A stretch of DNA of 63,703 bases, counting the filler, from Folioceros fuciformis (taxonomy: Eukaryota), in the NCBI GenBank assembly GCA_049999805.1. It is 5 parts of 5 records of this genome, joined end to end, with 100 filler letters (N's around TTAATTAATTAA, not from the genome) between each part and the next. Parts side by side here need not be neighbours in the genome. Positions count along the whole stretch, not along the records: positions 28,704 to 52,816 come from JBNGIO010006271.1; 4 more parts are not named here. One strand, 5' to 3'. The position numbers were made by a program, and so were the translations under genes. Positions 16,159-61,907 of this stretch are shown piece after piece. The first letter of the stretch is position 1, and each line of letters begins with the position of its first letter. Below the pieces are notes generated by a model that worked only from the letters and a program-made list of their open reading frames with translations, ran no database searches and was not told the DNA's origin.

Positions 16159-16258
16159 NNNNNNNNNNNNNNNNNNNNNNNNNNNNNNNNNNNNNNNNNN
16201 NNNNNNNNNNNNNNNNNNNNNNNNNNNNNNNNNNNNNNNNNNNNNNNNNNNNNNNNNN
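16159..16258. other. Assembly gap (100 N, no linker)
   Basis: N run. Confidence 0.99.
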
Positions 16259-24764: not shown

Positions 24765-25303
24765 CCGATGCGGATGGATGCTTGGCATGGTTGAGTGTGA
24801 AGAACAGGGATGGATGTTGATGGAGGTTAGATTGTCTTGAGCCAGGAGTGTGGGGCGTGGGCTACCTGAGGCTATTATGGTATAACGCTGATGACAGGGT
24901 GATTGTGGGTGTGGGTGCAGGATACGGTCAGTGTGCGATTTGTTTTGCTGGCGGGGCAGTCGTGAGCTATCTGTGAGGAGGGCGTTGGATGCGCTGTGAG
25001 GTTAACGTTGTTATGATTACGTCAGCGGGCGTGGTGACAACGTGACCAGGTGCAGTGCAAGTGCTGGAACGTGTGGCCTGCAGCATCTTGCTCAATTGCG
25101 CGTGTGGTGAAGGGGATTGAGCTTGGGGGTTGCTGGGATTTGTGAAGGTTTTGCTGTTGGGGATCCTGTGACCGATGCGGGTGGATGCTTTGCATGGTTG
25201 AGTGTGGTGACGGCTGACGTATGTTGTTGGCGGTTTGGTTGTCTTGAGCCAGGAGTGTGGTGCGTGGCTGAGTGAGGCTATGACGATATAAGGGTGATGA
25301 TAG
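24765..25303 (+). repeat. Diverged ~130-bp direct repeat pair in a G/T-skewed region upstream of the ROCO gene
   Basis: ccgatgcggRtggatgcttKgcatggttgagtgtg...ttgtcttgagccaggagtgtgg at ~24765 and ~25172. Confidence 0.8.
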
Positions 25304-25421
25304 CGGCGACGGTGGGTTCAGGGGTATTGGATATCTGCTGGCAGTGGTGTACGGTAGATCGTGGGACGTGGTAGCTGGGCGGTGTGGGGGCGTCCGTGGA
25401 AGTGCCAGGACGGAGTGTGGC

Positions 25422-28400
25422 ATGGCAAGTTCAAGTTCCAGCAGAGTGGGGTCGCAGGATGTGGATGGGGATCAGAAGCCAATTCCTTTTGAGTTGCAGC
25501 AGCTTCTGGCCGAGCTGGGTGCCGGTCCCTGGCCAGCAGCTGCAGATGCCGCATCTGCTTCTTCAGCCGGCACTCCGTATCGGCCAGTGCGCACGAAATT
25601 TCCTACTGATGTGGACAGAGAAGTTTTAATGCGACTGCGCGATGAGGCGAAGGGGGCAGAGGACGAGTGGGCGCTGGGAATGTGGAAGGAGATGTTCAGG
25701 GCCCTCGGTCTGTGCACTACTCTCAAGACCGTAAACGTAGATAGAAGATTTTTCGAGGAAATGAAATTGTATGCGGCGGGGTTGGAATTGGTGAAGGATT
25801 TCGTTGGGGGCTTACAACTCATATCCGAGGAGTCCAACCTGGAGACGTTGCGCCTCTATACTGGCTCTATAGAGCTTGGTCCATCCTGGCTAGATATTGA
25901 GAGTTCCATGTCAATTTGGAAGGGTTTGGGAGATTTTGCGCGTCGTAGTCGCAACCTGCGGGACTTGACACTGTTTACGAGTGAACTGCTTGATGAGGAA
26001 GTTCTCGAATTGTTGACTGGACTTGAGGCCAACCACAACTGCGTACTCCGAATCCTACGGTTGAAATGCGATATCGGCAGTTCTATTGCGGATAGGGTTA
26101 TGGTGCGACTGTTGGATCATACTGTCTATCCATCCTTGCAGCACATTCAGATTCCTTTAATGATGGATATATTTATGGGGGAAAAGATAATGTTACCTTT
26201 TATCGAAAATACACTTCTGCAACATTTGCACGTGAGTGGCAACGGCTTGAAAGTGCAGGAAGCCGCAATGGAGGTGCAGGTAGTCGCAATGGAGGCAGCC
26301 TTGCAGAGGATTGTAGACATACGGCATGGGAGAAAAACTGACATGGACAGGAGGAAAACAGGAAGTGACTATCGCCAACCGATGTTAGAGAAATTGGTAG
26401 AAGCGCTTGGAAATTATGGTGGGAAGGAAAAAATGTCAGGCAATAGATCTGTCACCAATTTCAAACTGAGTCACTTTTCCCACAGAATTGTGCCGTATGT
26501 AAACGAAATGTTCAGGGTGAACACGAAGCTGGAAAAATGTTATCTCAAACACGGTGAATGCGAATTTGCCGGCAACGGATTAACATTAGATAGGATGAAA
26601 AAGGTGAAAAGCGTGAGAATACAGGGAAGATATAGTGACAAATTCATGCACACAGTTTTCACATCTTTGGGGGAAAATGGCACACTTGTGCACCTCGACA
26701 TTGACAACTCATGCGATATGGCTGACGAGCTACTTTCAGATCTTATGCAGAGCCTGAACAGTAACAGCGTGCTCGAAACGCTAAAAATAGAAAATGAAGG
26801 CTGGAGACGGAGCGGAAAAATCGCACTCATACAAGAGCGTATGTTTGTGAGAAGGTTGATAAGACAGTATCTACCCATTTTCCCGTCTTTGGACTTCAAA
26901 CAGCCCGCTGCTGGTAAACTCTTACTTTGCGGTCCGGAAAGAGGAGGTAAAGTGTAGTGATTCCACTCTCACCAATCAACTCTTGGCTTGTTTAATACCA
27001 TTCAGTTTTTCTTCATGAGGTTGCTTTTATTATCGGATGAATAGGTTGTGATCCAGTTTGTTTTAAATTGCATGTAGGTAAAACGACGATAAGGCGAAAC
27101 ATGGTTCGCTATCTTCGATATCCTCGACTGTGGAAATGCTTGCGCTCAATAAGAGTGCCTTGGATCATGACAAAAGGTATAGCCATCGAACATGTCTTCA
27201 ATCACCAGAAAAATCTTCAAGTAAGCATTTGGGATCTTGCTGGCCAAGATGAATTCCGTTTTCTCCAGGATCATCTCTTTCCTAATATTCACCAAGCCTG
27301 CCTTTTTTGTTTCGTATTTAGTCCTTTTGATTATAAGAAAAAAAAAATTATGCTTGATAACCAAATTAGGGAATTATTTGAACAAGACTTAAAGTATTGG
27401 TTAACATTTATTGTATCTAATGTTAAACAAGGAGATGTAATAAAACCCAAGATATTAGTTATAATTACACATGAAGACAAGTTCAAAACGAGGAGAAAAG
27501 AGATTAAAAATCTTTTAGAAGAAAAGGTATCTAGGCTAACACAAACTTTCTCCGATCGAGTAGATATAATTTCAAAATTGAAAATCATTGAGGCTCCGTC
27601 CTTGAAATGTATGAAGGAATTAACAAATGAGGTAATATCACAATTGAAACATTTGTGCTTAGTCTCTCCTGAAATTCCGAGCGTGTGTGAGAAGTTGGGT
27701 AATGTCTTGATTGAGTGGGTATCTAAAAATCCTTTTGAACCTGTCATGAGTCAACAAGATTTTAACTGCTTTTGTATTGAAAACCTCAAGGATTTGAAGA
27801 ACTTCCAAGTGAATGGTCAAGAGCATATAGCCATTGCCATTGCCATTACCGCCTACCTCCATGATATCGGTAAAATCATTCATTTCAAAGACTGTGAACT
27901 GGTAGCAGTTAATCCCCACTGGATTACTCATGATTTTTTAGGTCATTTGATGCAATTACGTAGATTTGACTCACCCCCGACTAACCAAGTACAAATACCA
28001 TGCTTGCCTACTACTGCCCAAGGATTTGTACAACGAAAAACACTTGTGGATACCCTCAAAATCTTTACAGAGAAGCATACTAGACTTGAGCCCAAAGACT
28101 TGGTGAATATTATGGAAGAGTTGAAGTTATGCTATGAAGCATCCCTAGAAGATGTAGACAAGCCAGGGTGTTTCATGGAGGAGAAAGGGTATTTCATTCC
28201 ATTAACACTCAAGAAACAAGAAGGCTCGAGAAACAAGACGTCTCTTCAATGGGGGACTAAAGATGAGAACACATCGGAATTTATAGGAAGAAGATTACAA
28301 TGTGAAGATCCTCGTACTATCCTAACTGAGGGCTTCTTCCCAAGGGTCCAGGTACATATTCACATATCGTTTCTTCTATTGCAATTCATATGTGATGAAA

Positions 28401-28603
28401 AGAATAGGATTATGTACTAAACCATTTGACCATCTTTAGGTGGCATTGCGCAAGAGTCTCTGTGAAAAGAAGCATTTGGGAATGCAATCTCCCCAGCAGT
28501 ACAGCTTTGGTTACAACAATATATCTATTCTTTGCAATGGACTGGATATTCTTATTGAATACAGCGGTGGCGGGCACATTGGCTGTTATGTTGACATCCT
28601 CGT
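25422..28603 (+). CDS. TORNADO1-like ROCO protein (RI-like LRRs, Roc GTPase, COR); 3' end truncated by a gap. Introns 26947-27077 and 28352-28439
   Basis: LRR-like segments (LGENGTLVHLDI, LNSNSVLETLKI). P-loop LLLCGPERGG|KTT is split by an intron. Also TKGI, IWDLAGQDEF, ITHED, COR YLHDIGKIIHF..LVAVNPHW, and TRN1-like FIGRRLQCED..LTEGFFPRVQV. Confidence 0.85.
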
Positions 28604-28703
28604 NNNNNNNNNNNNNNNNNNNNNNNNNNNNNNNNNNNNNNNNNNNNTTAATTAATTAANNNNNNNNNNNNNNNNNNNNNNNNNNNNNNNNNNNNNNNNN
28701 NNN
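28604..28703. other. Assembly gap with artificial TTAATTAATTAA linker (same design at 52817-52916, 58803-58902, 61808-61907)
   Basis: N-flanked 12-mer that places stop codons in all six frames. Confidence 0.97.
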
Positions 28704-38420: not shown

Positions 38421-39565
38421 AGGGTTGTACCCCCTCTTAGAATCAATAAAACATTCTTTGTTCCTTGCTAGAAATGAAAAGTTCATGTTTGGACAGCGGA
38501 ACGGAGGACTGAATTTGGTGGCAAGAAAGGAGGATGGATAGGCCCTGTCACTTCGTCTCATCGCGCTCCTTCGAATCAGGCACAACGATTGCTCCTGAAG
38601 ATTTAATAGGGATCCGAACATCCGTTGTTGAACAAGCACTAAGCCATGTGAAGCACTAGCTCGGGAGCATTTGATTCTTGCAAGGGTGCATGCTCCCCAC
38701 GTGCCTTTGCTAGGAATACAGGAGTGTAAGTTTCATACTCAAACCGGGTACAGTCGAAATCTTCCCAAGAAACAGTTGAGGCACGACAGAACTGTTCCAT
38801 GGACAGGCTCCAGTTACCCCACAAGCTTCACAGGACCTCATGCTGCAAGTGGCTGTGAACCAGAAACTGCCACATCCAAAACGGTCCCACTTTCCAGCTC
38901 TTGCTCACGTCCTCGTTTGAAATGCATCATGCCAGCCATCCCCGTTTACAGCCCTATTCCTGCAGATCAAACAAGCGACCGGGACGAGACGGAGCGCTTC
39001 CTGTTGCAGAAGAGCTCGAGAAATTGAAACACACAATTCTGCAGTATTGCCAGAATCACTTGGGAGTACACGCTCTCCACGAAATTGTGCTTCAGAAGTT
39101 ATTCGCCTGAGAAAAGCTTACAACGGTTGTCATCGCCTGACTGGACGCAGGACGCGTCTCAACATCACGGCACTACGAATTCGAGTTTCAAACACAACAG
39201 CACCAAAGAGAGCATCCAGACAGTGCAGTGAATATGTTGCCCTCAGCGCAGATTTTAGGGTTTACAGTTAGGTGAAAGGAGACGGACAAGGCAGAACAAA
39301 GTAGCCGAGTTCATCACAACCCACAGTGGGTACTCCGATAATTAGGGACAAGATGATTAGTTAAGTGTGGAGCCGACCGGCCACCCGCCTAGCCAATCAA
39401 CTCACGGGACGTGAGTTTGGCGTTTACCTGCTGACAGAAGTAACCGTGGAGGACGAACATGCTAGCAGAAGACATGATGTTTGGACTGTTGTAGTTGTGG
39501 GACCTGCTGAATTGGAAACCAGACAATCAGAAGCATTACAAAGCAAACATCCTGGGGCACGAAAC

Positions 39566-42500
39566 TCATTCCCCCCACTCGTCGTCATCGCTTAGCTCTG
39601 CATTCTTCCGTGCAATGTACGCATGTAGCTTTGTAATCTGGATCCACACAGGGAAGAATTTCAACAGTTTGAGACAACAAACGTCGACACTAGAGATCTG
39701 AGTTTGATGACGTTGCTCACCGGAAGAGTGAAAGTTCCACTGTGGGTCGATGTGTCCCCCATCAATGCCAAGGTACAGGTTGTGTTATTCAAAGGATGTT
39801 GAATGCAATCTACAGTCATCCAAGAGCAGTCCAGTTCCAAAGGTAGTGACGATCAAACCTGCCGGCTTCACTTGACGTCCTGGGTTCCACTGAGCTGTCT
39901 TCTTGGAGTGCCTTGATAAGAGGCTACACAGAGAGGGCATTAGAAGTTATACCTGGCTTGCACACGACGTCTTCAGTTGTTCAGCTATTTCTACAGGCAA
40001 TCCAGTTGAAGATCTATGTCATGATTAGATACCTTCTCATGGCTGGCACCTTTCATTGCCAGCCTTCGCATTGTCAAGCTGGAAGCCATCTCTGCGAGGA
40101 CATCGATTTGCTGCGAAGGACATGTGAACAGCATTAGTTGGCCAGACTGGTTGATCATCAACACGAGCTGCCATAGAATGGTGTCCAGAATGATAACCTG
40201 AGTCTTAGATGATGAAGGGCCTTCCTTGTCTGAAGCTCGGGACCCTGAGCTTTGGATGGTTGATGTCACAAGCTTCTCTAAAGAGGCTGATAAATCCTTT
40301 GTGGGTGCAGTCTGTAAAGCTCAGCGACAAATTAGACCAACAAGGAACTCAACAGATTCTGTCTTTCATTCACGTAGTAATGAGATGTACCTTACGCAGC
40401 TTGATGCCAGGTGAGCGGATTGAAGCCATGAGCGCTGCACGCTGAGTATCTGCAAGTCCATGCAGCCTTGATTTACCTGGAGTTGGCTGCAAGTTGTGCA
40501 TCCTAGACAGCAAATGCCAGAGAAGCTCCAACTCTTACCAAGTGCAGGTAGCACAGGAGCTGAAGCCAAAGCGCTCTCAGATTGTCTGGACTTCCCTGGC
40601 GTGAGCACCCGTCTGCTAGGATGGCCAGTTTCTGGCAGAGTATCAGAGCTACCGGCTTTGTCAGCTGGTTTTAAAGGGGATGACTGGACCGATAAGGGAG
40701 GCAAGGGAGGAGGCAAGGGAGGTGGAGGAGGTGGAGCTAGCTGAACTTTCTCCTGCTGCCCATTCTCTTGCTGGTGTGATACTTTGTCCTCTGACTGTCG
40801 TGCAAATAAATCCTCAGCTGCTTAGACACAAGCAGATCAGTGCTGAGGACATGCATTGCCGCAACACACGCAGAAGCTTATTATGAATTCAGAATTTATC
40901 GATTGCTGCTCACATCTAGGAGCACTGGTTCCTCGTTGTGGATCCAGGGGTTTGACAGGCCCGGCTGGACCCCTTGACGCAGTCCTGAATGATCTGGATG
41001 ATGTTGTAACAAAGCTTTTCATTGAACCTGCAACACCCTTGTTATTCTCAGGGCTGCCAGAAACACCAATGACCAATAGCAAGGGCCCAGAAACCAAAAC
41101 CCATCAGGTACCAGCTTTTTTGGGTGAGGAACCACTGTGTGCTGCCGATGGCGCTATCGAGGGAACGTCATCCATCCCACTTTGAGAACCTGGTTGAAGC
41201 ACTCATTGATGTCAAGAATCGCATTGCGTGTCTATCGTTTGCATTCATCTGCATCTGCAGAGACCAGGGACGCATCGTACCAGTCCAACTTATGTCTGCG
41301 ACCATCGGCAGGTCAGGCAGAATGGGAGGAAGGGTGAAAGACGGAACCTGCCGAACAGTGGGCTTGAAGCCATACTGATCCATCCCAGCTGCATGCTGCA
41401 AAAGCGTTGTCCTGAATGATTCTCTGACCATTACCACTGCCGCCACTGCGGTTGCTGACCAAGGCCGAAAAACAAAACACAAACTGATTGCATGCACCAG
41501 CAGAGCTAGCATACTTACCATGGAGCCTCCATGAAGAACACTTTGAGGAGGAGCTGGTAAGGCTGGTTGGCTTTGAGTCTCCTCATGAAGCGGCTGGTCT
41601 GCACCAGCGAGGTTGTCCACCACCCTGTACCTGAATCATTCGACACGCAGAATGAGAACCATCTATGAATCCAACGCTAACCACAAATTTCCAGTAGTTC
41701 TACGCACTTGTGATAAGGCAGCTCGGTGGAGTTGAACAGCATGATATCTGCCACCGACTTAACATGGGGCGGTACTCCACCAATTCCTTCCTGATGAGGT
41801 AAAGCAGCCATTGAGCACAAAAATTTTAGGTCCTGAAAAGCTACAGTCCACGCCCTTCGACTGTTACCTTCGGTTTCCGGTAGGTCGGCCAACACTCATG
41901 ACTAGTCTCCAAGAAAAACCGAAAGAGCTCTAGAGCACCCTGATCTCCGTTTTCCTGGAACATCCACAGCATCGTCCGTTGTCATGTTGCCCAACATAAA
42001 ATACAAGCAAAACAGACATCCAACATGAATGGCTATGTGCAAAGGTACCTGCCCTGATCCCGGCGTCAAATTCATGCTGACAGCAGGCAGCATTTTGTGA
42101 TCACCTGCTTTGTTTCCACCAAACAAGGGAGCAAAATCTGCCTGCTCCGGAGCAACAGCAGGGTACTTGGCACTTGAAAACATGGTTATAGCCCGCTTGC
42201 TCCCAGCAATCGTGTCCAACTTGCTCTGCCACCACCAAAGGCACCTTCAACGCACGTTCCTGAAACCAATGAAGATGCCATGAACCCAGAATTTCGTTTC
42301 CCTGCAAGAATTACCCGGGCTGCTTTAATTCTTCTCGACACTTTCTTCACAGCATGTTGCTCTGCGACAACCTGCACCACATCCCCTCATTCCATCAGCA
42401 TGCCACAAACAAGACACAGCTCTTCTCCAATATGGGCACCCCTCCTCCACCGCCACACAATCTCAACTACCCGCTCCTACATCTCCTGCGACAATGCATC

Positions 42501-42620
42501 TCCCGCCCTACAACACACCCCCGATCTTACCCTGTCAGTGATAACATCGAAGATAGTATCTGCAGCATTCTGCAGCTCCAGCAGACTCTGGCAGAGCTGT
42601 TTATACGAATCCGACTGCAT
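39566..42620 (-). CDS. WASH1: WASH complex subunit 1 (WASH1/WASHC1) homologue, Arp2/3 nucleation-promoting factor; multi-exon, start approximate
   Basis: WAHD motifs LQNAADTIFDVITDR, IAGSKRAITMFSSAKYPA, EGIGGVPPHVKSVADIMLFNSTELPY|YRVVDNL and VPSFTLPPILPDLPMVA. Then a polyproline tract, WH2-like RAALMASIRSPGIKLRK, C region DVLAEMASSLTMRRLAMKG and acidic end LSDDDEWGE*. Confidence 0.85.
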
Positions 42621-42928
42621 CTTGCTCCCAGAATTCCAGACCTTGCCCCAGTTTCTTCAGCAAATCTTGCGCAGATGAGCCCTAGACAACATCCCTTTCG
42701 CTTTCCCCATCCAGGAAGTCTTCGAATCGGGTACAGATATATACATATCTCGACCGCACATCTGCCATGCCCCACGTTGCCCGTTTCCAAAGTAGGTGCC
42801 TGGATACATACTCGGCCAGTCACAGCAGCGTGAAGTGCAAATACGACAAGGCAGTTTTGCCGTGCGGCGAAAGGTCGTCTCGTATACCACTCGCCTACGG
42901 ATAACAAGAGGCAGAAGATCTTGTGGCC

Positions 42929-45009
42929 ATGGCGTCCGGCGCTGCTCGAGCAGCGTCTTCTTCCCTGTTCGTCTGGCATTCTTACCTCGGACGAGTTGCC
43001 AGCACCTCCGTCGCCACTTCCACCCGTTACGCTTCCGTTCGCGGCTTCGCCAGCCGCAATTCCGTGACTCTGGTGTTCAGAGAAGGCTTGAGCCATGGCA
43101 GGAGCTCCACTCGGGTGCAATCAGGTTCCACCTGGTAGCCTCTCTCCTGAAGTCACAGGTGTATGGTGGGATTTGTGAGCTTCTGGTTTTTCTTCTGTCG
43201 ATCCTCATTTTTTTTGTGTGTGAACTTTGGTGAGCAGGGGTGAGATTTGAGTGCATGCATGTGGGGGTGTCGCTCTGTGCTTGTGTGATGAGAACTGTGT
43301 GGAGGAATCAAAGATCCTTGCTTCTTTGTTTCCCGTGTGTATTGGTGGCGCGGCGTTGAGTTTTATTTAGGTTTCAGATTCCAGTTCAAGCTTTGTGAAT
43401 CCTGCCGCCTGGTGGCAAGCAATGTGGATGTTCCTTCTGAATTCTTCTTGAATTCCAAAAATTAATGTAGGAACTCGAGCGTGTACGACACGAGAATGGT
43501 ATGGAAGTTTGCAGGTTCGAGACTGAGCGACTGGCTTGGTTGTGTAGGAGGACAGCAAGCTGTTCCTACTCATCAGGAGCTGAACCAGTTTCCGTCGCTG
43601 CTCCAATTGATGTGGAGGCAGAAGTGAAGACACAAAAGGTGCGTTTTGCATCATCTCGTGTTTCCACGGCAAATGATTTGGCTTCCAGTAGGTTTGATGT
43701 CACTATGAAAGAGGACGAAGAAGAAAATCTCTGAAGTTCATCGTCTTTGGCTACCTCTAGAGATATAGCGGCAACTTTAGGAAATTTGCTGCACTCGATG
43801 TAAAGTACAGGACAGATGAAGAAGCGAAGCTTCATTGTGTTTTAATCTGCTTGCCATTGCAGATTTTGGTGTTGGGAGGTAATGGTTTCGTCGGCTCCCG
43901 GGTGAGCAGGGTCGGAATTGAGCAGGGCTTTGACGTAGTGAGCCTGAACAGGTACACTACGTTTGAGCGCAATGATATACATTTATTGCCTGCGCCTGCC
44001 CACACGGCCCCACAAGACGTGGTTTTGGAACGTGCAGATCTGGGCGGCCCGGGTATACTGAACCATGGGTGGAGCAAGTGTCGTGGGTGTCAGGCAAGTC
44101 GTCACCTCCTTTTAGTGTCTTGAATCACTCATCGCTGCATGTCGCACCTCCCGGTCGGCATGTCAAGGCTTGCCACACCATCTGTTGTGAAATATAGATC
44201 GAAGGAGTTTGGTAGGGTTTGTTTTCCATCACACTGACGGCACTGAAATATGTCTGGACTGTTGGTTACCGTGCAGGGGATGCCTTCAATGTTAAGTGGG
44301 ATGAGCTTCTCCAAGGCGTGACTGGAGTGATCTCATGTATTGGCGGTTTCGGTTCCAATGAGCAAATGGAGAGAATCAATGGTGATGCAAACATTGCTGC
44401 AGTTGAGGCTGCAAGCAAGGCAGGTGAGGACCTTACTCCTCAGTGATGCAAGAATTCCAGGTCGGTGAAAAGCGTAGATTGATTCTCGGTATGAACCTGT
44501 CAACAGGTGTGGCAAAATTTGTCTATGTCTCTGTCCACCGCTATAATCTGCCGGAGTTTGCTCTCAATAACGGTTACTTCAAGGGGAAAAGAAGAACCGA
44601 GGAAGCCATCCTTTCCAAGTTCCCCGGAAACGGTGAGTTTGCCCGGCTGAATTGACATCCACGTGTGCGTGGACAGAACGTGCGCATCTCGGGTTCTGAG
44701 GTCACCCCTGATGTTGTCTGTTGTCCTGGGCCAGGAGTCATCCTTCAACCAGGTTTCATCTACGGCAAGAGGCGGGTAAACGGTGTGGACATCCCCCTCA
44801 ACCTCATTGGTGGGCCGCTTGAAAGGTTGCTGGATAGCACCGAGAAGTTTCTGAAGCCTCTCTCTTCCATACCTGGCTCGGACCTGTTGCTAGCCCCTCC
44901 CATCAGTGTGGATGAGGTAGCGAAGGCAGCTATCAAATCCATCCTGGACGACACCCTCTTCGGCCTCATCGACATCGCCCAAATCAAGGTGGTTGCCGCC
45001 AGTCTGTAG
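42929..45009 (+). CDS. NAD(P)-binding Rossmann-fold protein, At1g32220-like, with a likely transit peptide; multi-exon
   Basis: Ser/Ala-rich N-terminus, ILVLGGNGFVGS, GDAFNVKWDELL, IGGFGSNEQMERINGDAN, GYFKGKRRTE, PGFIYGKRRVNGVDIPL, LAPPISVDEVA. Confidence 0.88.
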
Positions 45010-47106
45010 TGTTCTTTGTGCTTCTTCCTGGCAGAGAAGCCGTGTCTCCTCCTCAAGCTGTCTGTGAACGCCGTCCTCCCGGCCACCTTGCCAACTTTCC
45101 AGCAGTTCCTCGGTTTTCAAATACTGCGCTCGGCAGTAGCAGAGAAGCTCCTGCTGGAGCCGGTGGTGTCTGGAGGATGCCCGGGAAGCTTTCTTCGGTC
45201 AGATTGTGGCGTGCTAGCAGATGCTTTGGGGGCTGCTCAGGAATGGTATGATGGCACGAATGGACATGCACACCCCGCAATTATGAGTGGCATGGTTGGA
45301 TGGCATAGTGCCAGATATTTTGCGGTCGTCCGTGCGCGCATTGTGTTGTATGTCGTGATGAGAGTCTCGTAATCGTAGCGACACTTCAGTAGTACTCCGG
45401 GTGTCGTTGTCCCTTGTCCCTTGTTCTGGGCCATGAGTCACGTCGAAGGAGGGTAAACAGTGTGAAAAGCCCTGAATTGCTGAGGGACGTCGCCGTGAAG
45501 GTGAAATCTGTCTCTTCCGGATCGTTGCCATTCCCTCGCCTCGCTCAGTCCTGGCGAATAAGCTGGCCCTTGTCTCTCAATTTGTTGCGTGCATCGTTCG
45601 ACAACAACCTCGCCAGGTCTCTGTTCCCCGCCTGGTTCTCAACAATTTGAGCACGCAATGGTGTACTAGTGGACTAAGTATGTCATTGAAGGCGTAAAAG
45701 TGTGGTAAAAGTTGGACGAATATAGCATACCGAAACCAGGCTAGAATTTCGAGCCACATGACCCACGATCCCAGTTTAATTATATACATAGGTACCTGCA
45801 TGCAAGGCAAGGCAAGGCGGAAGGCAAGGATGTGCAACTGAGCATCATAGGCCGCGTGGACGGATGAAAACTTGTAAGCGTTTTTACCAACAGCGATGGC
45901 GTGCGGCCAACATTCCCTCAAAACATTCTTCAACAAACATGAAATTACCTGCCCCAGTGGCACCGCCACCTCCCTTCCATGCATCTCGTGTATGAAATCT
46001 TGCAACAGTCCCAGTAAATGAACATAGCTGTTGATCGGCTCGCGATAAAATAATGGGCTCACATTTTAAGGGAATCTGGACCGAGTAAGGGTCGGGGGTG
46101 GGACTGCTTGACACAGGAAACTGGAGCCCAGTAGAATTGAGGTTGAAAGGCCAAGCGTCCATGTTGCCGGAGGACGCAGGCCTCCAATATCCAACTTTTC
46201 CAAGATAAGCCTTTCCCTTGCCTGCACTCCACCGCCATCCTAGTTGCTTGCATCACATTGTTTCAATTTCCGCCGCCCATGCAAATATGCCGTCATAGTA
46301 TAAGATCGCATGGCATCCGATTCCCAAAGCAACGGAATGAAACGTGGCACGGGTCATGAAACCTGAGGATGCACCTGGTCCGGAGAGACGTCCACTGATT
46401 TCACCACGGCAAACCGGATTATTCGGGACTTCTCGTCCCACTCAAAATCACCGTCCTGGTCTTTCTTTGGCCTCCCTAAGTTCCCGCAGGACCTGCATGT
46501 GCCGGGGTCCAGAATGGTGGAATCCGGAAGCGTAAAGTTCTGTGCCACAGAATTGAATCCGATTTTCCGGTCAGGTAAGAGATGCATCCCGGGCAGGGCA
46601 GGGCAGGGCAGCGCGGCTTCCCAAGTGCAGTACTGCTACCCTCGGGCGATGATTCCAGACGCTAGAGAGGGGCAAACGCTCTCTGGCTCGGTCTTCACTG
46701 GCCAGGATGCCAGTTTGCCAGCCCAGACTGTACTCTCGGCACATCATTTGTGCGGGAAGCATATGGCTCGGCTGCCTGCCATATGGCACGGACTCTCAGG
46801 GTAAAAGCAATACGTTACCAGGTAGCACCTAGGCAGAAAAAATTCTGTTCGCGTCAGGAAGAAGCGCCTGCAAGTGCCATATCCACATTCGTGTCCACAC
46901 ACGATGAAAGCCAAAATACAACGAGCTCCACGAGCAACGAATCCATCAGCTTGGAAACGCGTAGACTATCCTCTTCCCTTGCGGAGCGAGTGGGATAGAG
47001 AGAAAACCCTAGGTCTGGAGTACGAAACCAAACAGGCCGCGGGGCAAGCATGTCACGGAAATTGACAGCAAACGGCAACAGGATTTGCCCGGGGGAGGTA
47101 GATCCA

Positions 47107-51703: not shown

Positions 51704-52916
51704 AATATTCTACTGGGAATGTTGCACATCTGGACGGTATTCGAAATGACGCTTATTATTGTGTGAAAAGAAATAACAAGATGTCTTACGTGTTATATTT
51801 CCTGAAACCCAGGTTTACAGATGTGTCAAAATACTCCTAAGTTTCCTAGGGTTCATTGCAGAAATATATATGAATTGTAATGCTGCATGATATAAAATAA
51901 TTTGTTTACTTATTATTGTAATGCATACTTAACTTAAAAGTGAAATTATAACTCGTGAAGTTAAGTTATGACAAATTAATGTCAAAATGATTTCTTTAAT
52001 TGTTATTGTGGTATACTGAATATACTTCATGTACTCAGCTTTGGTTAAATTATGACGCGTTGGTGTCGATGAGTGCAAACGAAGTATTTTTTATAATAAT
52101 GATAATATATGTGTATATTTCCGTGTGAAACTGTGCAAGAGCCAGTTGTTACAGACTGCGACGCGAATTCTCCCGTACGACGATGTCTTATCATACGACT
52201 TCAAGCTTGAGACCTGGCTCTGATGTCCAATCGGTCTTTCATCGAAACGTTTCGACACGCCGTTTTTGAGAAACGATACCACAGGCGGTGAGGAAGGCGT
52301 GCGCGGAGTATGGCGGACGCCAGATCCATGGATGCGCGATGAGGTGCAATGCGTGCTGGCGGGAGCTGGAGGCTCGCGCCGTAGCCACCACATGCGGCCA
52401 CCTCTTCTGTGCGCTCTAAGAATCATGCTTGCAGTTTCGGAATTTGATGCATCAATACTGCACGTTCGTCGTGGTCACGTTGAGGCCGCTGCTGTCCTGA
52501 GCGCTGCCACAGTCGTTCTGATGCGGATCTAGGTTTTCAAGTGAAGCTGTTGAAGCATGCCGATATGTGATTTTGTGGCTGTGATTTTCTGTGAATTCTC
52601 TTCCCGGGCCCGATCCTCAGAATTGGTTCAGCTCCAGATAATTCGTTGTGTCCGCTTCTTGCTGATTCCTCGAGGAAGGAGAGAGGTTTTTCTGTGGTGT
52701 AAAGATTGCAACACATGGTCTTTAATTGGTCGAATCAGGGCTTGTTGCTAAATGTACGAAACTGGACGCAGTGTGCGCACGGGTCGTCTCAAGCCACTCT
52801 TCGGCTTGAGTGAATGNNNNNNNNNNNNNNNNNNNNNNNNNNNNNNNNNNNNNNNNNNNNTTAATTAATTAANNNNNNNNNNNNNNNNNNNNNNNNNNNN
52901 NNNNNNNNNNNNNNNN

Positions 52917-53953
52917 GTATGTACCCGCAGTGGGAAGAGAAGAGGAAGGTAGCAGGCTGCTAAGAAGAAAGGGAAGGAAGTGGAATCAGCTACAGGATCA
53001 AAGGAGGAGGAGAAGAGTACTCCGGATGGCGAGGTATCAGGTCAAGAGGAGGGAGACCAAGAAGGGCAAACCCCTAAAGAGGAAAAATCAGGGGCTGGAG
53101 AGGGAGCAGCTCCAGCAAGGGGGGAAAACCTGGAATTTCCTCCAAATGTGAGGGGAGAAGTGCTGGACATGATCCAGGAGGAGCTGGATAGGGCAGCAAA
53201 GGAGTCAGCACCCGTGGCTGCAAGTCGGCCACCTAGGGAGGTGGCAGTTGTGATCAAAGGGACCGGTGGGGCTATTCGGAAGCCGTTTGATTTGGCTGGA
53301 GCCATCATGGACCAGCAATGTGCTGTCACCTTTGGCCAACTCCTAAAGGATAACCCTAAATATCGACAACAGGTCCGGAAGGCGTTGCAGGAGACCCAGC
53401 CCAAAAGGGGGAAGAGGCTACCTAAATCAGGACCAAGGGTGTCGGCGCCCATGGTCAGCATGGTGTCCAAGGCGGACCAAGGACCGGCTGAACTGCAAGT
53501 GGAGATTGCAGGCTGCGTGATTAAGAGGGTGCCGCTGGATACAGGTTTAGGGGTGAATATTATGACGGAGGATACCACCAAGAAACTCGGATTGGAGATC
53601 GAGCACACAACCAAGGTCTTGAGGTTGGCCGATATTTTCAAAATGCAGCCGGTGGGGGAGCTGAGAGGGGTAACCACAATCATATGGACCATTCCCTACC
53701 TTCTCGATTTTGTGGTCATTCAGCACAAGGCACCGGGCTACGACATCTTGCTAGGCAGGACTTGGCTGTATGGATCGAGGTGCAAGCTACCATGGGGAAG
53801 GAAGGAGGTGGCTTTCAAACCATCTTAATAGGACCCCAAGACAAAGGACGGTAGGATTTGTTTGAGCTGGAGCCGGGATGTCTACCTTGGTGAGACCCCA
53901 ACGGACACGGAGGGGTACACGTCCGTGGGGGACACAACTGATTTGGAGGGGGG
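52917..53953 (+). mobile_element. Ty3/gypsy-type LTR retrotransposon fragment (gag C-terminus and aspartic protease)
   Basis: VTFGQLLKDNPKY, retropepsin-like PLDTGLGVNIM and YDILLGRTWL. Confidence 0.75.
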
Positions 53954-56900
53954 TGTTCACGGGGTAACCTCACTCGCTTAGGGTTTACCCCCAATTATTT
54001 GTGGTTAGTTAAGTTTAGTTTAATTAATGAAAGGTCACTTTAGCAAAGAGGTGCCTAGCATAGATAATATGCACTCTTTCCATTACTTTGCATTATTGTT
54101 AATTATTGCCTCCTGATTTATCATCTCTCCTGCTCTCCATTTATGTCATGGTATCAGAGCAAAGGCTCTTTATGATTATGTGTGAATGATAACCAGACTC
54201 ATTCATGTACTAGCATCATCACATTTGATGGCAACTCTGACTATGTTGCCATTAAATCTTTACAAAGGTTGGACCTCAGATTCTGGACAAGATTGTTTTT
54301 CAACCTTTGATCCTTCTAAATTCCGCTGCGTAGGAGCATGAGAGATTCTCTACCAAATCATATTTGGAATCTCAGTAATTCCAATTATTAATTTTACTAA
54401 GAGAACAAAAGCTGACACTGTTGCAGAGGAAGAACAATAGGGACTTCAGCAAAGTCACACAATTATTTCTAAATAATTTTGGAACTATGCTCAAGCCCAC
54501 ATTGCTCCTCCTACACACAATTGTCAGTTACAATGTCTGAATAACTTCAGATATGATTGCTGCACTTTTTCTACAGCATGCCTCATCGTAGGCATAGTCG
54601 CCGTAACCCTGCAGATATATCTGCACAAAAACGGCACTCATATCAGCCCAATTTACCTAAATTACATCAGGGATCTGTTATATCAGGAATTCACAAATTG
54701 GGTGATGGTGTAGAAAAAGACTACCTGCTCTGGCGCATTAACAGTTTGCACGATCAGTTGACTAATGTGCTTCTTATGCAGGATGCACAAATCGTGCAAC
54801 AAAATTCAACTGTAATTGCAAAAATTGATCAGATCAGTAAACAACTGAGTCAGATTTGTGCGCGCCAGGAGTTTCTTCTCAGGGAATTCCAGCAATTGGA
54901 TTATCCTGAACCCTTGTCCATGGTGCAGCCAGCCATGGGATTGTATCTTCCAACCCTGTAGCCAACTCCTAGAAAGTCGGATGCACAAATGAGTTAGGGT
55001 TTTCACATGAATGTTGAACTCATGTGAATCGGTGCACCCCTTGGCAGTTAGGGTTTTTCACATGGATTTCCGAATCCTGTGAACCGGTACACCCCTTGGA
55101 AGTTAGTGTACCATTTCGGTGCTTCCATGTCTCTTGGTGTCTTGTTGATGCCTCTCTCTCTTAGTCAATGTCTGTTCATTTCTCCTGCATAGGCAAATAT
55201 CCTGATTAGTCAATCTCTTCGGTGCTGACTAGTTAGCCCTTAACACAGGCCCAAGTTATCCTACTACGATGACTAGCATTAACCCACCTCCTCCATCACC
55301 TCCTACACCCCTAACTGGCTACCACCCTGTCTTCACTTCCGAATTAAAAGAAAATGACGGGTTTAATGGCCAGAAATACGAGGTGTGGAGAGTTCGCATG
55401 AAATCTACTCTGTTAGCTAGAGGAGTTTGGGGAGTAGTAGATGGATCTATTCCAGAGCCTCCTATTACAGCCCTCACATGAGAAAGAGATAAGTGGGCTC
55501 ATGCGAATAGCATTGGAATTGCTCTCCTTGTCTCTGGCCTAACTGAGGATCTTATTCCACAGATCGAATTTCTCACTAAGGCCAGTGAAATATGGGCACA
55601 GTTGGAAGGTCAGTATCGGATAAACAATGTCCTTACACTCTGTACTTTGCATATGGAGTTCTATGGACTTAAAATGCGAGAAGGGGACAAAGTACTTGCT
55701 CACACCAGCAAGCTTAGACACCTTAGAGCACAACTTACCTCTCTTGGTACAGTGATGGACGAGGTGGACGTGATTGCACAATTGCTCACCAGCCTTCCGC
55801 CCAATTACCAGAACTTTGTATCTACACACAATGTCCCCATCCGATAGGCTAGGGCTGCCGGAGTTGTAGGACGCCAAATTACTCTCACCTTAGACGAGGT
55901 GATAGGGGCTCTCTTCCAGGAAGAGCAAAGTAGGCTCTTGTTAGGGTCTGGGAAAACCAAAGTTGACAAAGTCCTTACTGCTTCCCGTGGATGAGGGGCA
56001 CAAAGAGGAAGAATGCGGATACCACAATAGCAGGGCTTCTACCAGGGTCCCCGCCATAAAGGACAACGCAGTGATGTTGGTCCATCCTCCAAACGCCTTG
56101 GTAACTGTAACTGGTGCGGTAAACCTGGCCATTGAGCCAAGGAGTGTAGGAAGAAAAAGGCTGGAGAGCCTCGTAAACCATCTTGACCTACTACTAATGT
56201 TGTAGTTAGAGACAAGCCTGCAGAATCCCACAAGCCAGTTGTTAAAATATTAACAATCTGTCTTTCATCCTTAGCAGGTGACAAGGCAGCTTGGTACCTG
56301 GATTCTTTTCCCACTGCCCATATTTGTCGGGATGAATCTCTATTTACATCCCTTACCCCTACTTTTGACGTTGATAGGGTGTATCTTGGGGATGAGCAAA
56401 ATTCCACCAGTCTACAAATTCTAGGCCAAGGTTCCTGCAATTTTAGACTTACTGATGGCTCCACCTTAACCCTAGCAGATGTTCTGTACGTCCCCAGAAT
56501 GGCAAAGAACCTGCTATCCTTGAGTCGGTTACTCAAGCAACATGATTTCTAGTTGACAGCTCATGATGGATCCTGCTACTTTGTTAGGCCAGACTCTCCT
56601 TCTACTTGTGTTTTTCAAGCACTACCAGAGGATGACCTGTATCGTTTAGAATTTACTTGTCTTCCTGGCAGTCGGACTCATGCCTATTCAATAAGTGTAG
56701 GCAACTTGACAGCTGTCCAACAGTCTATTCTCTGGCATGCTCGGTTGGGTCATGTTAATAAACAGACCCTGGCATCCCTCAGCAAAGAAGGTAGCTATCG
56801 TGAGCCCTTACCTAAAAGTTTGAAGGAGTTGCCACTTTGTGAGACTTGTGCCCTAGCCAAGCAGAAGGAACTCCCGTTTCCCACAACTCCAGCTCATCGA

Positions 56901-58802
56901 TCTTCACAGCTCCTTGACCTGGTAAATGCTGATATTTCTGGCCGCCTTCAGGTTTCTTCACTTGGGGGGGCAAATTACTACCTTACCATCACAAATGATT
57001 ACAGCAGGTTTACTTGGACCTTTCCTATGAAAAGAAAGAATGAAACCTTTGCTTTGTTTCAAGACTGGCTTATTACTGCACAGCACCAAACAGGCTATTT
57101 GCTCAAAATTTTCCGATTTGATTATGGCACAGAATTTGTCAATCAGTCATTCTCTAACTGATTCTTTGAACAGGGCATCATTCACCAACTAATTGTGCCC
57201 TATACGCAGCAGCAAAATGGTGTTGCCGAACGCAAAAACCAAACCTTGATGGGAATGACGCGTGCCATGTTGTTGTGGTCTGGCCTTCCTTCGCCGTACT
57301 GGGCAGAAGCTGTAGTCACTGCCACTTATATTATCAACAAACTACCAACAAGTTCTCTTGCTGCTAGAACTCCTTTTGAGATTTTCTGGAAGAGGAAGCC
57401 CAGCCTTCTTCATCTCAGAATCTTAGGCTCAAAAGCCTATGCCTATGTTCCTGTAGAAAAACGCAGGAAATTAGACAACCGATCAAGAGCATTAGTCTTT
57501 GTTGGCTATAGTGAAACCGTAAAAGCCTACAAGCTTATTGATCCTATAACTCTACAACTAGTTCTGGCACGGAGCGTTACTTTCATGGAGTCTCTGCAAT
57601 CTGCACATGTTGCCATTCAGCATGACTCTTTTGAACGACCATCCACTGTAGAAGAAGCCAATGCTTTAGAAGGGTCCACAGGCCTTCTGTCCTTATATCC
57701 TGAGGATGCTGACGGGCCTGCTATCCCTGATCTCCTAGCGGGGAACCAGGACCAACCTAACTATGAACTTGCTGGTGTCCACCCTGCTCAGCATCTACCT
57801 GTTTCTGACGAGGACCAGGACCCTGCACACCCCGTTGCAGTAGAAGAACGAGTTATAGGTCCTGATCCATTAGGATTCAATGGCCTATTTGCAGAGGCAG
57901 ATATAGACATTGAAAATGCCCCAGACAATTTACCAGCTGTGGATGACGTGACTATACCTACCCCTGCTATTGCCTGTGACTCTTCTCGAAATGAAGATGC
58001 TGGACTTCATCGCTCTTCTCGTCACAGACCTCTGCCTTCCGACTGGAGGGAACTCCCATATACCAGTGTAGACTTCCGACAACCCACAACTTCAACTGTC
58101 TCCTCTCCTCCTGCAGTTCCTCTGGAGCCAGCTACTCTTACAGAGGCCTTGACAGGCCCAGATAAAACAAAATGGCAATTTGCTGTTGATGATGAGTATA
58201 ATAGCCTCATCAAAAATGGCACTTGGCGTCTGGTTCCTCGACCTGCAAACAAAAAGGCTATCACCTGTAAATGGGTGTTTAAACACAAGTTGAATGCTGA
58301 CGGGCACATAGCCCGTTACAAAGCAAGGTTGTGTGCTAGGGGGTTTACCCAAGTCGCTGGTTTAGATTACCAGGAGACTTTTTCTCCAGTAGTGCGTGCT
58401 CATTCCATCCGCATTATCTTGGCCCTAGTTGCTGAGTATGACCTGGAATTGCAGCAGATGGATGTCTGCACGGCTTTCCTCCATGGGATTCTTGAGGAGG
58501 AGTTGTACATGGAGCAGCCAAAAGTTTACATTGATCCTGCACACCCAGATCATGTTTGCTTACTCATCAAGTGCCTACATGGCTTAAAACAGAGTGCAGA
58601 ACGTTGGTATAAGAGGTGTGACACAGCCCTAAAAACCTTGGGTTTTGAACAGTGCAAGGCTGACTCCAATGTGTACATCTTCCGAGAGGGCACCACCTAT
58701 GTCATCCTAGCTCTCTACGTGGATGACGTGATCCTTGCTGCTAGTAACCCTCTTATCCTGTCACACGTAAAGGATATGTTGAGAAAAACATTTGAAATGA
58801 CA
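53954..58802 (+). mobile_element. Ty1/copia LTR retrotransposon 1: candidate 5' LTR (~53954-54148), PBS, long leader, and gag-PR-IN-RT with several in-frame stops; truncated by a gap
   Basis: tRNA-iMet PBS TGGTATCAGAGC at 54149-54160 after CA. Gag FNGQKYEVW, CCHC CNWCGKPGH*AKEC, PR WYLDS, LWHARLGH, integrase QQNGVAERKN, RT DVCTAFL and LYVDD. Confidence 0.93.
54992..55106 (+). repeat. ~55-bp tandem repeat x2 in the copia leader
   Basis: gttagggtttt(t)cacatg...tgtgaaYcggtRcaccccttggMagttag twice. Confidence 0.8.
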
Positions 58803-58902
58803 NNNNNNNNNNNNNNNNNNNNNNNNNNNNNNNNNNNNNNNNNNNNTTAATTAATTAANNNNNNNNNNNNNNNNNNNNNNNNNNNNNNNNNNNNNNNNNN
58901 NN

Positions 58903-61807
58903 CTGCATCTACTTTCTATCGGCTAGGTACCAAGTATTCGACAGATTCAAAGAGTATTTGAGCTACTCACAAAGGTTTACATCTAGTCAATTGAAGACAT
59001 TGCGTTCTGACAACGGAGGTGAGTATACATCTAGAGAGTTTGACATTTTCTGCAAGCAACATGGCATCCAGCGTCATTTTTCTGTAGCCTACACCCCAGA
59101 GCAGAATGGTGTTGCGGAAAAACGTAATAAAGACCTCAATAATTCAGCAAGATGTATGTTGCAAGCAGCAGGAGTTGAGAAGAGTTTCTGGGCTGAAGCT
59201 GTGGCAGTAGCTGCTCACGTCCAGAACTGACTACCTACAAAATGCCTTGAGAGAAAAACTCCATTTGAAGTCTGGACTGCCAGAAAACCAGACCTTAAAC
59301 ATCTCAAAGTGTTTGGGTGTCTGGCCTATGCGCATGTGCCCTCACAAAAACGACAAAAGTGGGATGCAAAGGGGCAAAGATTGATGTTTATCGGCTATTC
59401 TGACGAAGTGAAAGGTTTTAAATTGATTGATCCTGCAACAAGGAAGGTGATTTTTGCAAGGAACGTGATATTTAGAGAGAACCTTATGTGGAAAGATTCG
59501 AGAAACACTGAAGGTGTTGGAACTGATACCTTTGATGAGCCTGAAGTTACGGAATACCCACAAGGAGTTCAATTTCAGATTCCACGATTCCTTGAGCCTT
59601 CACCGACAGGTACTCCTGTTCCTATGTTGCAGCCTCAGTCACCTCCCACGGCAGCCGATCCCATTGATCCAGGTGGAGGACGTCCTCTACCTAGCTCTGC
59701 ATCTTTTTCGGATAATCCACAAAGTGGGGAGCCACAGCCACAAGATGGTCTTGATAATCAACCAGTATTACCTCATCCACAAAATCAACAACCACGACGT
59801 TCTCAAAGGACAAGACCACCAAGAGAACTATGGAGGGAGCCTCCTCTCACATATGATCACCAAGTAAGTATTAATAGTGAGCTAGCTGCTGCTGCAGAGG
59901 ACGCTGAAAGAGGAAGTGATCCTCAGACCTTCGATGAAGCTTTATCAAGTGAGAACGCAAGAGGATGGTCAGAGGCAATTAAGAAGGAGTTAGATGCACT
60001 TCATCGAAATAAAACATGGGAGCTTGTGCCACTCCCTAGAGGAAGAAAACCAATTAAGACCAAATGGGTCTTTAAGACAAAATACAAGGCTGATGGTTCG
60101 CACGACAAGCTTAAGGCACGGCTTGTCGTTAAGGGCTACTCTCAGAAGGCCGGGGGGGACTACCTAGAGACCTTTTCTCCAGTAGTACGACAAAGCTCAG
60201 TAAGACACTTAGTGGCTCTTGCAGCATATACAGATCTGGACATCCATCAAATGGATGTCCAGAGTGCGTTCTTATATGGGAAAATTAATGAAGACATCTT
60301 CATGGAGATACCCCAAGGGGTAGAGGTACCTGTAGGACAAGAGAATTTTGTTTGCAAATTAAAGAAGGCATTATATGGGCTCAAGCAGAGTCCACACAAG
60401 TGGTTTGGGTGTTTTCGAGAGTATCTACTGACCTGTGGCTTTGAGCAGAATCCGTCCGACATGAATGTGTTTTTGCTTAGGAACACGCAAGGTTTTGTGA
60501 TATTAGCTGTTTACGTAGATGATACTGTTTTAATATCAAACAGTTCAGGACCTGGCGGAACTTTAGAATATGCTAAGAAGATTCTATCAAGCAGGTTTGC
60601 CATGACAGACATGGGTGAGCTTCATTCCTTTCTAGGCATCAAGGTAACTCGAAATCGTGCTGAAGGGGTTCTCACCTTGTCTCAAGAGGTGTATGTTCAA
60701 CAAGTTCTTAAGAAATTTGGCATGGATACTGCAAAACCCTGTGCAACACCAATGTCTACCTCAGTACAACTATCAGCTATGCCAACACCGTTGTCAGCTA
60801 GAGATATTGAAAGAATGCAAGAGATTCCTTACCGCGCAGCCTGCGGTTCACTCCAATATCTGCAAGTATCGACTCGACCTGATATAAGCAAAGCCGTGTC
60901 ACAGATTTGTCAATATTTCGAGGGTTATGGTGAAATGCATTGGACTGCAACCAAGCGCGTTTTTCGTTATCTCAAGGGCACGGCAGCTTATGGACTTGTT
61001 TACAGATTGAGAGGAAGTACGGAGCCAGCAGAGATGTTACTTACAGCTTTCAGCGACAGCGATTGGGCAGGGGATCTTGACAAGAGACGGTCCACGGCAG
61101 CCTATGCAGTTATGGCCGCATCTGCTGCTATATCATGGAGTAGCAAGCGGCTACACACAATCTGTTTGTCATCCGCAGAAGCGGAGTACTCTGCATGTAC
61201 TGAAGCAGCGAAGGAGGTGTTGTGCCATCGTAGATTCTCGGAGGGTCTGCGTCGACCGTTTGATAATCCAACTGTTCTCTTTTCAGACTCACAATCGGCC
61301 ATTGCTATGACTCAGAATCCCATGTATCACTCACGGACCAAACATGTAGAACTGAGGTTTCACTACATTCGACAACTCGTGGAGGAGAAGCAAATCCAGT
61401 TACAATATGTTGCAACAGAGGAAAATCAAGCTGATGTACTAACGAAGGCGCTGGCTCGTTTCAAACATGAGCAGCACCGGGCAGCGTTGGGAGTGAAGGA
61501 CTTAGCTTTGGTTAAAAGTTAGAAGGTCAAAGAAAATAAAATAAATTAAATAAATAAATAAAAGGATATTTATTCTAAGTAAAACTTCAACTAGAGGGAG
61601 TGTAAAAACCCCTAGTTCCTAATCCTAGTTCCTAGTTTGGTTTTGGATAGTTTCAGTTTACTTAGGATTATTAAAGTTACAAGCGGTTATTTAACCGTCA
61701 ACTGAATATATATAAATGTTGTTCACGAGAAATAAAAAGAAAGAGTTCTGTTTCCGCTCTATGGTAACTGCCAGGTGGCCCGAAGAATGACCACCCTCAG
61801 CTGCAAG
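58903..61807 (+). mobile_element. Ty1/copia LTR retrotransposon 2: integrase-RT-RNaseH, PPT and start of the 3' LTR (TG at 61601)
   Basis: LRSDNGGEY, EQNGVAE, DVQSAFL, VYVDD, SDSDWAGD, SRTKHVELRFH; AGAGGGAG PPT directly before TGTAAA. Confidence 0.95.
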
Positions 61808-61907
61808 NNNNNNNNNNNNNNNNNNNNNNNNNNNNNNNNNNNNNNNNNNNNTTAATTAATTAANNNNNNNNNNNNNNNNNNNNNNNNNNNNNNNNNNNNN
61901 NNNNNNN

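Follow-up and report, generated by a model that had tools for sequence, protein, structure and literature searches.

The 63,703-nucleotide (nt) stretch of Folioceros fuciformis DNA analysed here (hereafter, the window) carries on its minus strand, at 42620..39566, a genuine, intact WASH1-type gene whose expressed form is spliced. We put at roughly 80% the probability that the locus is a single-copy WASH1 (WASHC1) orthologue of the Arp2/3-activator type, belonging to a land plant that is not a seed plant and is probably of a bryophyte lineage. When the exons, set by coordinate, are joined and translated, they number 16 and yield 532 codons and a stop, with an open reading frame that runs uninterrupted from the ATG at 42620 to a TGA stop ending at 39566. 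The protein presents the full layout that a first-pass annotation, made from the sequence alone, had described: a WAHD domain, a proline-rich tract, a WH2-like motif (V), a putative C region and an acidic terminus with tryptophan (A), the last three forming the VCA module. The features are listed below, where X1, X2 and X4 denote contigs from three sequencing runs and A1 an alignment of nine plant WASH proteins, used also as a profile.

39566..42620, minus strand: whole coding span, 16 exons; the X1 contig is identical letter for letter across 1945 nt
42531..42620, minus strand: exon 1, ATG and opening part of the N-terminal helix; join 42531/42371 in X1, X2 and X4
42315..42371, minus strand: exon 2; model and intron-free contigs
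42049..42225, minus strand: exon 3, core WAHD; Pfam PF11945, 24.6 bits
41868..41954, minus strand: exon 4; model and contigs, aligns with homologues
41708..41790, minus strand: exon 5, WAHD; PF11945, 21.7 bits
41519..41630, minus strand: exon 6; model and contigs
41281..41395, minus strand: exon 7, WAHD part with VP.F.LP..LPDLPMVA; PF11945, 11.6 bits, several invariant columns in A1
41112..41189, minus strand: exon 8; model and contigs
40914..41027, minus strand: exon 9, variable linker; model and contigs
40539..40817, minus strand: exon 10, linker holding the proline tract at 40696-40734 (codons 333-345); NAGNAG acceptor
40391..40449, minus strand: exon 11, WH2-like actin-monomer motif (V); Pfam WH2, 19.7 bits
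40198..40311, minus strand: exon 12, variable linker; model and contigs
40033..40110, minus strand: exon 13, amphipathic basic helix, C-like, LAEMA..MRRL.M.G; conserved in 19/19 aligned C-termini
39859..39923, minus strand: exon 14; join 39923/40033 in X1, X2 and X4
39721..39739, minus strand: exon 15, 19-nt micro-exon; needed by the frame, fits the contig arithmetic, residues align with homologues
39566..39637, minus strand: exon 16, second short helix (LHAYIA-type), acidic-tryptophan tail at 39569-39592 and stop; model and C-terminal alignment

Gene structure and transcripts

All 15 introns are of the GT-AG type and measure 77-159 nt, or 80-159 nt when the 40817 acceptor of exon 10 is taken, and the guanine-plus-cytosine (GC) content is 52.3% in exons, 46.9% in introns and 48.6% across the window. 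An in-frame join of 16 exons is far beyond chance. The gene limits of the first-pass annotation, 39566-42620, coincide exactly with the ATG-to-TGA span of the exon model, and all six motifs that it quoted were recovered at their positions in the minus-strand translation. Its approximate placements of the proline tract (~40697-40740) and of WH2 (~40392-40442) agree with the measured tract at 40696-40734 and with the exon at 40391-40449.

Four sequencing runs (X1-X4), none of which is recorded as RNA and whose RNA type is a guess, were aligned to 39400-42800. X1 supplies a single 4408-nt contig that spans all exons without introns and without a single difference; its aligned span of 1945 nt equals the summed exons plus the covered flanks, and identity extends 180 nt before the start codon and 166 nt past the stop. 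It skips 13 of the 15 introns at the borders of the model, the skipped pieces ending in CT..AC, that is, GT..AG on the minus strand. The two 3'-most introns lie outside the listed X1 joints, beyond which there is one further joint; X1 positions 1238-1399 comprise 162 nt, which is 19+65+78, and sequencing depth is zero in the X1 bin 39742-39855. Because the contig arithmetic and the zero-depth bin fit, both introns and the 19-nt micro-exon between them are supported. At exon 10, X1 takes the acceptor at 40817, three bases downstream of 40820, which gives the 532 codons. The alternative NAGNAG acceptor at 40820 would insert one alanine, and the joins of X2 and X4 fall within a base of 40817.

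X2 and X4 come from relatives that are 90-95% alike, are intron-free and share the same splice positions; X3, from another relative, has a contig that reads through introns and looks DNA-like. Thus the intron-free X1, X2 and X4 contigs, from runs guessed to be RNA, join the WAHD exons to the VCA exons in frame, as the first-pass gene model implied. The sole other source of such contigs, a processed DNA copy, was considered and rejected as unlikely, because the intron-free form occurs in three organisms and the identity of X1 is exact, flanks included. The X1 contig continues for 1464 nt past 42800 and 999 nt past 39400, and may fuse the WASH transcript with its neighbours.

Family assignment

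The Pfam scan covered ten pieces of the gene, read as unspliced frames. WASH_WAHD (PF11945) matched three of the ten, in profile order along the gene: exon 3 with 24.6 bits (cut-off 24.2, E = 2.1e-5, profile positions 62-104), exon 5 with 21.7 bits (E = 1.5e-4, 143-178) and a piece covering exon 6/7 with 11.6 bits (E = 0.18, 216-248), exon 3 alone standing above the cut-off. Matches to MORF_dom, DUF6822 and GSPE_N1E (E 0.2-0.3) were dismissed as noise. The SCAR/WAVE domain gave no match at E <= 1 on any of the ten pieces, nor at E <= 0.1 on P0017, the nearest full-length relative. With WAHD matches present and the SCAR/WAVE homology domain without a match, the protein is of the WASH1 type and not SCAR/WAVE, in line with the first-pass assignment.

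Run through index-free phmmer against 1.84 billion representatives, exon 3 returned 16 proteins at E <= 1e-3, from clusters named for Ceratodon, Psilotum, Selaginella, Riccia and Calypogeia. Ten of the 16 were scanned with Pfam: in eight the WAHD score exceeds the cut-off (54.8-125.6 bits), in one it falls just short at 23.4 bits, and P0013 has no match; the full-length proteins among the 16 carry the domain without exception (7/7, 70-126 bits). A word-indexed protein search with the same exon gave nine candidates, none of them scored. In the ESM Atlas, the named clusters nearest to P0017 are animal WASH complex subunit 1 (0.93), then WAVE (0.87) and SCAR3 (0.82); its ten best matches there all share the family, a lead rather than a test.

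A profile search of the PDB with A1 found no WAHD chain, and its matches were confined to WH2-type and low-complexity segments. The stop-to-stop frame of exon 3 drew 141 PDB matches that would suggest an ankyrin/DARPin fold, with E down to 1.4e-7 and no single significant stretch. We rejected these matches as an artefact because weak repeats were summed over the read-through of intron 3 (41955-42048, residues 53-100), a warning for searches that use unspliced frames.

The C-terminal module

The proline tract lies between WAHD and VCA in all aligned homologues. Exon 11 scores 19.7 bits against Pfam WH2 (cut-off 23.1), and the A1 profile aligns at this exon to the WH2 of the WAVE1 chains 3p8c_D and 7usc_C (E = 0.0018); the WH2 columns R, A, A, L, I, L and K are invariant in A1. 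An alignment of the final 150 residues of 19 sequences gives the following order: WH2 (..RAAL.ASIR....LRK.), a variable stretch, a basic amphipathic helix, about 35-40 variable residues, a short second helix of the LHAYIA type and the acidic-tryptophan tail. The basic helix, LAEMA..MRRL.M.G, a putative counterpart of the C motif, is conserved in 19/19 C-termini. The acidic run and tryptophan, here the last eight codons (39569-39592), occur in 16/19; the exceptions are Sphagnum, a partial Taxus protein and Selaginella, in which the tryptophan is kept and the acidic run is absent. The putative V and C elements and the acidic-tryptophan element are conserved from bryophytes to Ginkgo.

AlphaFold run on A1 (nine rows, P0017 first) predicts a single N-terminal helix at residues 4-63, with mean predicted local distance difference test (pLDDT) values of 81-94 in ten-residue blocks over residues 11-60, and P0017 helices at WH2 (433-441), at the C-like motif (486-502) and at the second helix (540-551). 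The second helix (FTLP..LHAYIA), which adjoins the acidic tryptophan tail, could conceivably be the true C motif, in which case LAEMA..MRRL would be an extra green-lineage contact, either regulatory or with Arp2/3 or actin; since all groups of non-flowering land plants have kept the gene, bryophytes would then run a WASH endosomal actin system with mechanics of its own, later lost in flowering plants. We consider this compound proposal rather unlikely.

Plant relatives and selective constraint

P0017, a transcript-derived protein of 562 residues from a 2.2-kb contig, has a WAHD match of 111.7 bits (profile 19-265) and is 59% identical to the spliced model over 567 columns (578 bits, blastp). 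The model aligns end to end, micro-exon residues included, with WASH proteins from liverworts, mosses, a fern, lycophytes and gymnosperms, and is 39-56% identical to the named ones. A search with the profile A1, whose first row is P0017, scored 8000 candidates and found 22 proteins that reach E <= 1e-5, including Marchantia paleacea, Sphagnum, Ginkgo, Taxus and Diphasiastrum; one match carries the NCBI name 'WASH complex subunit 1 isoform X1 [Selaginella moellendorffii]', and no flowering plant is among the named matches at that threshold and candidate number. One cluster holds Physcomitrium patens proteins named 'WASH complex subunit 1-like' at NCBI (XP_024402992 and others). A maximum-likelihood tree of ten WASH rows pairs the window protein with P0017 (100/100) and sets the two apart from the liverwort clade and from the moss, fern and lycophyte rows, with deeper forks unresolved. 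This separate clade, the short introns and the GC content (49.6%, and 53% in exons, are reported for Anthoceros angustus, PMC7027989, against 48.6% and 52% here) would suit a hornwort, a guess held at about even odds. Judged by these alignments, the gene is conserved over its full length across non-flowering land plants.

Substitutions in the sequencing runs were assessed on a sample of 40, with 146 further differences beyond those listed. Taken singly, 20 of the 40 are synonymous, whereas random single-base changes to the coding sequence would be expected to be so in 24% of cases. The 12 listed indels comprise seven in X3, all intronic, three in the 5' flank in X2/X4, and two in exon 10, of +18 and -15 nt in relatives, both in frame. 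Every listed frame-breaking indel (9/9) falls in introns or an untranslated region.

Proposed function and alternative explanations

By analogy with animal and Dictyostelium WASH, the long N-terminal WAHD helix would anchor the protein within the WASH regulatory complex, the proline tract could recruit profilin-actin and the WH2 motif would hand over an actin monomer. Arp2/3 would be bound and activated by the amphipathic helix or helices together with the acidic tryptophan tail, and may in turn build branched actin patches on endosomal membranes and so aid cargo sorting. The lineage may, as the first-pass annotation inferred, retain an intact endosomal WASH pathway. No WASH partner gene was noticed among the large frames of the window, and no genome-wide partner search was made.

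Several points weigh against this assignment. The kinds of the sequencing runs are a guess, so far as RNA is concerned; half of the listed substitutions (20/40) change the residue, mostly in the linker; and WH2 stays below the Pfam cut-off here as in all seven relatives that show it (15.3-19.9 bits). The P0017 model is poor outside its helices (mean pLDDT 47.5, predicted template modelling score 0.20), so that only helix positions are usable, a poor overall score being expected because the subunit folds within a complex. In a 2013 review, Ostreococcus is the one plant reported with all five complex subunits (PMC3689024). A literature search of openly available papers found no functional study, biochemical or cell-biological, of any plant WASH, which upholds the first-pass view of a system little characterised in plants.

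The repeated loss of WASH in plants, with N-terminal fragments in grasses read as pseudogenes (PMC3298513), raises the question of whether the gene is a decaying relic, transcribed yet no longer an Arp2/3 activator, like the Sorghum and Oryza fragments. The residue-changing half of the listed substitutions would agree with decay; against it stand the unbroken 532-codon frame, the canonical splice sites of all 15 introns, the confinement of the relatives' frame-breaking indels to introns and untranslated regions, a synonymous share twice that of chance, and the conservation of V, C and the acidic-tryptophan tail over about 19 plant sequences. Decay is accordingly very unlikely. It is easier to imagine, and still unlikely, that a working WASH1 operates independently of the canonical five-subunit complex, or at sites other than endosomes (the plasma membrane, cell plate or nucleus, for instance), its partners having been lost or replaced in plants. 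The restriction of the five-subunit report to Ostreococcus would fit this, as would the partial loss of Commander/COMMD in Physcomitrium and its complete loss in Arabidopsis (bioRxiv 10.1101/2023.01.25.525455); the 2013 statement, however, is older than most bryophyte genomes, and the N-terminal helix, which lies within the complex in animals, is the best-predicted part of the P0017 model and contains invariant columns. Moreover, even the basal flowering plant Amborella has a protein annotated as 'WASH complex subunit strumpellin homolog' (XP_006844422.1; PMC4824794), and therefore parts of the complex may outlast WASH1 in seed plants. Seed plants are also described as keeping retriever/CCC parts without WASH (PMC11397296).

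Misidentification, whether of a SCAR/WAVE member or of an amoeba, animal or oomycete contaminant taken for plant WASH, is scarcely credible. WH2 does align best to WAVE1 among solved structures, in a PDB set without any WAHD chain; none of the ten scanned pieces of the gene, however, matches the SCAR/WHD family, WAHD being matched instead, and the Atlas places WASH clusters above WAVE and SCAR. The named relatives are all land plants, and exon and intron GC (52% and 47%) compare with 48.6% for the window. Within the block 28704-52816, which is free of N, genes for cullin (95.8 bits) and PEPCK_ATP (105.9 bits) lie on either side of the WASH gene; because it shares this block with them, contamination is unlikely. 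Its neighbours are ordinary eukaryotic and plant genes, in line with the first-pass view of ordinary plant genes around it. The preferred reading thus remains a plant WASH1 orthologue of the Arp2/3-activator type.

Other features of the window

Beside the WASH gene, 43470-45010 (plus strand) holds a divergent neighbour that, by eye, has the look of an NAD(P)-binding Rossmann fold. At 5918-7450 (minus strand) lies an intronless phytepsin of 508 residues with saposin-type insert domains; its best matches are two proteins 67-68% identical, then mosses (62-64%) and flowering plants (55-60%), and a few high-scoring insect records cover about half of the query. Two long open reading frames occupy 25284-28420 (plus strand), the second with Roc, COR-A and Ras-type matches just below or near the Pfam cut-offs. 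This region looks like a ROCO-type GTPase gene, reminiscent of plant TORNADO1. Long frames at 52950-63100 (plus strand) contain gag, aspartic-protease, integrase and reverse-transcriptase-like sequence that by eye is typical of Ty1/copia, broken by N runs; copia-type frames lie at 56-63 kb.

The window contains nine N runs. Those at 28604-28703, 52817-52916, 58803-58902 and 61808-61907 each consist of two 44-base runs around 12 bases, and 16159-16258 is a plain 100-N gap. The 44+12+44 pattern looks like a masking or scaffolding artefact and not like ordinary gaps.

Comparison with known systems

Published catalogues have listed plant WASH genes from mosses, lycophytes and conifers since 2010-2012, and this gene is ordinary among them. 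Veltman and Insall (2010) is reportedly an earlier source on plant WASH, as cited by the 2013 review. In Kollmar et al. 2012, WASH with a regular acidic domain is described in Ostreococcus, Physcomitrella and Selaginella, along with a full-length WASH in Picea complementary DNA (Picea glauca); Pinus and Cycas gave fragments, Sorghum and Oryza N-terminal pieces that resemble pseudogenes, and eudicots are reported to have lost the gene (PMC3298513). This distribution is restated in the 2013 review (PMC3689024). The novelty in plants suggested by the first-pass annotation was therefore overstated, since Physcomitrella, Selaginella and Picea WASH have been in print since 2012 (PMC3298513) and the NCBI names of moss and lycophyte proteins already include WASH complex subunit 1 and 1-like.

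The present gene adds one intact, expressed WASH1 to the published picture, in which WASH was present in the land-plant ancestor and lost towards flowering plants, and it leaves current understanding unchanged. Its practical value would lie in the role of WASH-made actin in a walled cell, if the organism or a close relative proves transformable; the same system could show what replaced WASH in seed plants.

Relative to the WASH1 of Physcomitrium, Selaginella and Picea, the window protein has the same order of WAHD, proline linker, WH2-like motif, basic helix, second helix and acidic tryptophan, and aligns end to end. It differs in sequence: its identity is 39-56% with the named plant proteins and reaches 59-66% with P0017, the protein with which it forms its own clade. 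With animal and Dictyostelium WASH1 it shares the WAHD profile (positions 62-248 on three exons), a VCA-type C-terminus and the nearest named Atlas clusters. By contrast, the plant proteins have about 35-40 residues and a second helix between the C-like helix and the acidic tail, a feature seen in a comparison among plant sequences only. We know of no demonstration of WASH1 function outside animals and amoebae.

SCAR/WAVE is the established Arp2/3 activator of plants. The window protein resembles it in an output module of WH2-like motif, putative C motif and acidic tryptophan and in a predicted long N-terminal helix, whereas its N-terminus is a WAHD and not the SCAR/WAVE homology domain, and the SCAR/WAVE clusters score lower in the Atlas.

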